Position numbers and translations under genes: made by a program. Of a DNA stretch of 64,000 bases, positions 8,495-9,061 are shown piece after piece. The stretch is from positions 84,444,001 to 84,508,000 of the forward strand of contig OX597817.1 in NCBI GenBank assembly GCA_951406725.2. Direction: 5' to 3'. A model generated the notes under the pieces. The model was given only the letters and a program-made list of their open reading frames with translations. It did no database searches and had not been told where the DNA came from. Positions within the stretch are counted from its first letter, which is position 1. Every line of letters starts with the position of its first letter. Source of the stretch: Octopus vulgaris (taxonomy: Eukaryota).

Positions 8495-9061
8495 ATCATA
8501 TAATTAAGGGCTAAAGAGGGTTATTCTAAAGCCAAATACACTGTTTTATCCACTTATAATCCGCTTGTTACAGGAAAATTGAAACTGAAAACGGGCAACT
8601 AACCTTTAGAAAATTTAAGTTTCGTTATCTCTATATTGAATCAATTTCGGACTTAATCTTATAAAAAAAGATATATTCCTTCTTCAGTAGAACTTTCGAT
8701 GGGATATAAATAAAATACTCACGTATGATCATGGAAAAAGCACAAGCTAAAAACATAACTACACTTGAGTACATCACTTATATCTAAAAATAAAAATTCT
8801 TTGGTCAGCCTCAGAAAACAACGTCCAGACCTTTCGCCGCTACAAATTGTAATGGTTACCAGTCCTCCTGTAGCAAGCATCGAGTTTACTACTAAGCAAT
8901 ATAGGATGAAGTCCCTTACTCTACAGCAAAGGAATTCATCAGGAAGCGTGGGCAGTATATTTAAAAAAACCGTTACGGTTGCAATATACATCATATAATT
9001 AAGGGCTAAAGAGGGTTATTCTAAAGCCAAATACACTGTTTTATCCACTTATAATCCGCTT
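8495..9061 (-). mobile_element. Terminally redundant 495 bp non-coding unit carrying a hammerhead (retrozyme/pLTR-like)
   Basis: 72 bp identical direct repeat at 8495-8566 and 8990-9061. Hammerhead at 8630-8691. Inserted at a (TA)n tract. Confidence 0.75.
8630..8691 (-). ncRNA. Type I hammerhead ribozyme
   Basis: Minus strand tcta CTGAAGA a gga...tcc GAAA ttg att caa TA taga. Stem I tcta/taga, stem III attg/caat, AUA site. Confidence 0.8.

Follow-up and report, generated by a model that had tools for sequence, protein, structure and literature searches.

A dispersed 495-bp hammerhead repeat of Octopus vulgaris with Penelope-type insertions and a probable circular RNA template

A non-autonomous element probably copied from circular RNA

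A 495-bp repeat of the Octopus vulgaris genome is probably a non-autonomous element that is copied in trans by a Penelope-like reverse transcriptase (RT)/GIY-YIG enzyme from a one-unit circular RNA. The copy from which the analysis started occupies positions 8495..9061 of a 64,000-nt stretch of contig OX597817.1, referred to below as the window, and is read on the minus strand, which is the hammerhead sense. Judged from sequence comparison, the family to which it belongs is dispersed, non-coding and old, with subfamilies that are 69-95% alike.

Structure of the insertion

The insertion measures 567 bp and consists of one complete 495-bp unit and 72 bp of the preceding unit. An earlier note on this DNA had described a 495-bp monomer with identical 72-bp ends, and this is what the sequence contains: an exact direct repeat, 8495-8566 and 8990-9061, with a period of 495 bp. 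On the minus strand, 8990..9061 is what 5' truncation has left of the upstream unit, a stretch called the redundancy here, and its outer end, 9061, is the variable truncation point; 8495..8566 is the final 72 nt of the complete unit, ending at position 8495 in a fixed 3' end (P1) that abuts (TA)n. A second fixed 3' end, P2, which is used in other copies, maps to 8887..8899 on the same strand, about 95 nt beyond P1; the segment between the two, 8989-8890, is the tail. We infer that P1 and P2 are reverse-transcription start sites 1 and 2. The unit has a GC content of 34% and contains no open reading frame of at least 100 amino acids.

The target is a (TA)n tract (8377..8494, no strand assigned) within a host repeat, which we take to be an octopus SINE. 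Its left part (8166..8376) and right part (9062..9228), both on the plus strand and with approximate ends, were delimited by copy comparison. The two flanks are halves of one abundant repeat, and many of its other copies run from one half to the other with only a short stretch rich in TA between them, so the proposed insertion into the TA tract of this presumed SINE is supported. Because the target is a TA tract, no target-site duplication can be read at 8495..9061.

Copies and subfamilies

The genome searched comprises 2.8 Gb in 227 contigs. A 26-mer from one end of the unit gave 161 exact matches, which disposes of the possibility that the sequence is unique, and matches to the hammerhead core numbered 382, 123 and 16 under three patterns (roughly 520). 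A pattern taken from contig loose ends gave six near matches and zero exact ones. Merging of duplicate loci reduced a first set from 100 to 84 and left 178 distinct loci in a larger set (subfamilies A-C). Assignment by best score placed 27 of the 178 in subfamily A, and is looser than assignment by diagnostic sites, which gave 22 A, 55 B and 7 unassigned among the 84. Loci L001-L030 were picked as best matches and are therefore biased to long copies. The distant loci L115, L228 and L230 were left out of the comparison of units and variants within an arm and of the junction counts, and these three and L235 were left out of the per-subfamily maximum lengths.

The window copy belongs to subfamily A, which is the youngest, divergence from the subfamily majority being 0.51% in A and 1.22% in B. 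Subfamily A is 94.6% alike to B, 86.5% to C and 69% to an older 509-bp unit, and every sampled relative is an equivalent non-coding unit. No arrays were found in subfamilies A-C with a mid-unit 28-mer, whose 67 matches occur at most twice per locus; one pair of matches 10.8 kb apart reflects a 4.2-kb segmental duplication and not an array. Head-to-tail units with two or more complete hammerheads do exist in the family, long arrays were not found, and two tandem hammerhead cores are present at 11 of the 178 loci; the window copy has one. The literature searched on octopus hammerheads, Penelope elements and retrozymes yielded general papers and no published description of the 495-bp family, although supplements to the retrozyme and Penelope papers may list related motifs.

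The hammerhead motif

The well-formed minus-strand hammerhead of the earlier note was recovered as a type I motif, read from 8692 to 8629 and defined by sequence pattern and covariation. Stem I pairs 8692-8688 with 8633-8629 (5 bp including one U-G). The core consists of CUGAAGA (8687-8681), an extra A following A9 (8680) and GAAA (8648-8645), and stem II pairs 8679-8677 with 8651-8649 and has an additional inner helix of 5 bp. Stem III is near-palindromic, and cleavage is predicted at the AUA triplet, between 8634 and 8633. The core pattern has a single match in the window and none in 100 shuffles. An Rfam scan gave no match at the gathering score, and in the isolated 64-mer the catalytic fold has an energy of -4.8 kcal/mol, versus -8.5 kcal/mol for the lowest-energy fold.

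The stems also covary among copies. In 162 hammerhead contexts, the stem I pairs comprise 104 C-G, 21 U-A and 15 U-G, and in the most distant subfamily all three stems have been replaced with pairing kept. Such covariation, together with the retention of pairing through three replaced stems, indicates selection on the ribozyme fold. At the base of stem II, a mismatch or a shift is seen in subfamilies B and C.

Two splice-site-like motifs on the minus strand enclose the hammerhead and are given as leads only. A conserved GTRAGT (8717..8722) lies about 30 nt upstream and resembles a 5' splice site, and TTTCAG (8585..8590) resembles a 3' splice site, at which a 138-nt intron containing the hammerhead would end. 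GTRAGT was found in 116 of 143 contexts and an acceptor-like YYYCAG in 150 of 158; the most distant subfamily has no acceptor-like motif. The arrangement recalls the 5' intron of Penelope. The spliced joint was unseen in contigs of four sequencing runs, a result that is uninformative either way; nor do sequencing records name any RNA run that contains the unit, which likewise counts neither for nor against.

Fixed 3' ends and variable 5' ends

The insertion pattern makes it very likely that the copies were inserted in Penelope style from a template longer than one unit. In the hammerhead sense, the 178 loci of subfamilies A-C contain 261 arms, with 155 ending at P1 and 106 at P2. Head-to-head P1+P2 pairs form the largest class (80 loci), followed by P1 only (65), P2 only (16) and P1+P1 (2); P2+P2 was absent, and the remaining 15 loci include another end. 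TATATA occurs within 16 nt of 139 of the 155 P1 ends and of 101 of the 106 P2 ends, and the older subfamilies have the same two 3' ends. We recognize a Penelope-like tail signature here because the arms end at two fixed sites adjoining (TA)n and because head-to-head P1+P2 pairs occur. The stop points of the two arms agree to within 4 nt at 14 of the 80 head-to-head loci, where 1.5 are expected. The longest arms measure 901, 918 and 1024 nt, none extends much beyond two units, and the stop rate rises as arm length grows.

The earlier note had named variable permutation points and redundancy lengths as signs of a circular template. The copies are not freely permuted, since each arm is anchored at one of the two fixed 3' ends, and it is the redundancy that varies: 58 of the 81 single-arm loci do not reach the length of a unit, and the other 23, which include the window copy, have a redundancy of 18-404 bp. 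As 5' ends are scattered and redundancy lengths differ among copies, the 72 bp reflects a truncation point and reads as the 5'-truncated start of a second unit, not as an LTR or a target duplication. A TRIM-like mini LTR element whose LTRs measure 72 bp, or a long target-site duplication, would likewise account for the identical 72-bp ends of the window copy. Either is most improbable, given that the repeat is element sequence of variable length, that most single-arm loci fall short of one unit and that many copies are head-to-head; the fixed 72-bp ends that a TRIM-like family would have in all copies are not what the genome contains. An LTR retrozyme, or TRIM, was also discarded as a classification, because the terminal repeats are not of fixed length and the hammerhead is of type I, not of type III as in LTR retrozymes.

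We also considered, and rejected, an excess of 5' ends at the site where the hammerhead is predicted to cut. Such ends seemed to occur in 2 of 11 second-pass arms of the first set, and a held-out set gave 0 of 7 second-pass and 0 of 64 first-pass arms. The two apparent cut-site stops actually end 5 nt downstream.

Circular and linear templates

The earlier note explained the 1.15-mer in the window by reverse transcription around a circular RNA. The circle is backed indirectly by the data below; the 1.15-mer alone is no proof of it, as an identical product arises by 5' truncation whenever the template exceeds one unit. We consider a circular one-unit RNA the probable template, and propose the following route. 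A locus with two hammerheads would be transcribed, self-cleavage would free a monomer, and a host ligase would close it. A Penelope-like enzyme would then nick (TA)n and begin reverse transcription at P1 and/or P2, roll round the unit and halt at a variable point. For the window copy this would mean a start at P1, one lap and a halt 72 nt into the second. Having a single hammerhead, the window copy would be unable to release its own monomer, and 11 of the 178 loci, those with two tandem cores, could do so.

The main alternative is Penelope-type insertion in which the template is linear, a read-through RNA of a partial-tandem locus (1.5-2 units) whose hammerheads stay uncleaved. Lost length would then be regained when the RT switches templates or when sequence is duplicated locally, and a circle, if formed, would be incidental. 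We regard this as possible, though rather unlikely. It has trouble with the similarity of tandem units, since both units of an arm hold the same sub-lineage and private variants. For variants known from at least 5 other loci, the units of an arm agreed in 10 cases and disagreed in 1 (6287 paired sites), and 6 private variants at 4 loci were common to both units, versus about 0.1 expected by a hand estimate. Gene conversion could be another source of alike tandem units. Furthermore, arrays are absent, and four head-to-head copies need a linear parent longer than any sampled locus of their own subfamily. Unit length and hammerhead have been kept over about 30% divergence, which is also at odds with read-through.

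Other observations fit the circular template. The cut site was crossed 186 times with only 2 indels, so that end-to-end jumping has left no scar. The predicted fold of the circular monomer has a z score of -4.8 in the hammerhead sense and -1.7 in antisense (40 shuffles). In one sequencing run, which is RNA only by guess, the unit appeared as a single closed, flank-free contig of 526 nt (496 + 30 overlap). This is at most a weak hint of a circle, as a multimer or pooled genomic copies would look alike.

On the other hand, several findings count against a circle. Of 101 same-arm differences, 38 recur at other loci. The units of L025 are distinguishable, and a variant of one unit is absent from its neighbours, which fits a linear read-through template. 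Arm length that tops out near two units, with a rising stop rate, fits finite linear templates, and loci such as L143 carry two hammerheads and both start sites. In vitro, uncleaved RNA was the main substrate of the one Penelope-like element (PLE) tested, and hammerhead mutants still inserted (PMC11167929). Circular and linear routes may both operate.

Mosaic haplotypes were seen in the subfamily B copies L025, L089 and L094. They suggest that source RNAs have exchanged sequence, through template switching or conversion, and their occurrence is in keeping with the linear route.

A candidate helper enzyme

A search for GIY-YIG sequences identified an intact element (family L327-L342) whose RT+GIY-YIG frame spans 781 aa and which has a long upstream region. 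It is young, its 16 copies being a median of 0.66% apart and the 456-bp pLTRs of L327 99.3% alike. Its target is (TA)n, and its two 3' ends are separated by about 38 nt. An ATCCTA motif just ahead of the second of these is shared with P2 of the 495-bp family, a likeness that is only suggestive of a helper link. We therefore treat this intact (TA)n-targeting PLE only as a candidate helper of the 495-bp family. No canonical hammerhead was found in it, and comparison of the 495-bp unit with six PLE loci, in a non-exhaustive search, gave weak, AT-rich, opposite-strand matches only. The window also contains a truncated GIY-YIG endonuclease fragment of a PLE (39326-39628; Pfam PF01541).

No autonomous homologous parent was found at the core-bearing loci sampled, and the unit itself has no RT + GIY-YIG frame. 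These results bear on another explanation, in which the copies are 5'-truncated pseudo-LTR remnants of an unsampled autonomous PLE. The hammerhead does have PLE features, namely a short helix I, a long helix II and an unpaired base after A9, as described in PMC4209133, and the loci retrieved cover no more than a part of the roughly 520 core matches. Yet each unit is preceded by another unit, in arms as long as two units, and in no case by a coding frame, and at none of 233 core-bearing loci is a PLE frame joined in sense and unbroken to the unit. We consider such an origin improbable.

The proposed copying from a circle in trans can be taken a step further. On a more speculative reading, which we put forward tentatively, a viroid-sized circular RNA lineage has been kept in this genome across about 30% divergence, array-free and with no related autonomous element, by offering its two Penelope start sites to a Penelope-like enzyme that is unrelated to it and has no hammerhead. 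If so, the insertions would directly record, in the genome, target-primed reverse transcription as it travels round a circular RNA, and the recovery of length by Penelope-type partial tandems would be explained.

Relation to known systems

The idea of a circular template put forward in the earlier note is already in print as a hypothesis. PMC4209133 proposes circular templates for more-than-unit PLE copies and describes the extra base after A9 and hammerhead pairs on opposite strands. In coral, mussel and axolotl, the short repeats with a type I hammerhead known as non-LTR retrozymes give rise to circular RNAs, and PLEs were proposed as their mobilisers (PMC7229834). A 2026 preprint argues that retrozymes are non-autonomous PLE derivatives, on the evidence of co-occurrence and pLTR similarity, mainly in vertebrates (bioRxiv 10.64898/2026.07.22.740005); here the link between the two is the insertion signature.

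The 495-bp family shares with non-LTR retrozymes (PMC7229834, bioRxiv 10.64898/2026.07.22.740005) a non-coding low-GC unit, one type I hammerhead in each unit, head-to-tail copies, a strongly self-paired predicted circle and co-occurring PLEs. It differs in being dispersed and array-free, with at most about two units and PLE-type ends, and its circle and cleavage are predicted ones.

In published PLEs, partial tandems are accompanied by an upstream copy in inverted orientation, by palindromes at the junctions and in some cases by a tail (PMC3846280, PMC8557442). This tail is bounded by two RT start sites, both of which follow the hammerhead (PMC11167929). With endonuclease-containing PLEs (PMC11167929, PMC3846280, PMC8557442, PMC4209133), our family has in common the partial tandem, 5' truncation, inverted upstream copy and (TA)n targets, as well as the tail between two RT start sites, palindromic junctions, an upstream hammerhead and possibly a 5' intron. 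Unlike these elements, it has neither an open reading frame nor a homologous autonomous partner among the sequences found, and its tail is about 95 nt long, versus the published 30-40. Non-autonomous Chlamys elements such as MRC1 are similarly non-coding, carry pLTR-like redundancy, sit in microsatellites and were once mistaken for LTR elements (PMC8557442). They resemble an autonomous partner at the 3' end and belong to a clade mostly without hammerheads, whereas the 495-bp family keeps its hammerhead and has no such homology.

We classify the family as a new variant of the non-LTR retrozyme or non-autonomous PLE: it is dispersed, array-free and long-tailed, almost all of its insertions bear the PLE signature, and the search for a homologous parent gave none. 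Retrotransposition of animal retrozymes and a circular origin of Penelope-type partial tandems are published as hypotheses, with no direct test, in PMC4209133, PMC7229834 and bioRxiv 10.64898/2026.07.22.740005. The concepts being in print, the worth of the family lies in the insertion-level evidence and in a test system: one genome contains a short and well-defined substrate whose two start sites are mapped, copies that are young, and a candidate enzyme from an element that is likewise young and intact. Because substrate and candidate enzyme come from the same genome, circular and linear templates could be compared in the existing in vitro PLE assay.

Other elements in the window

A second non-coding element of like architecture occupies 10921-12277, with a unit of about 567 bp and a direct redundancy of 519 bp at 100% identity. 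It has an inverted upstream arm and (TA)n at both ends, and no canonical hammerhead was seen in it. An unrelated minimal hammerhead with a CUGACGA core, an extra A and a palindromic stem III lies on the minus strand at about 7570-7610, in another abundant repeat that resembles a PLE end. Long frames at 30579-34986 and 43295-45317 resemble, in our view, LINE ORF1/endonuclease/RT sequences, and several fragments elsewhere in the window presumably derive from mariner-like transposases.
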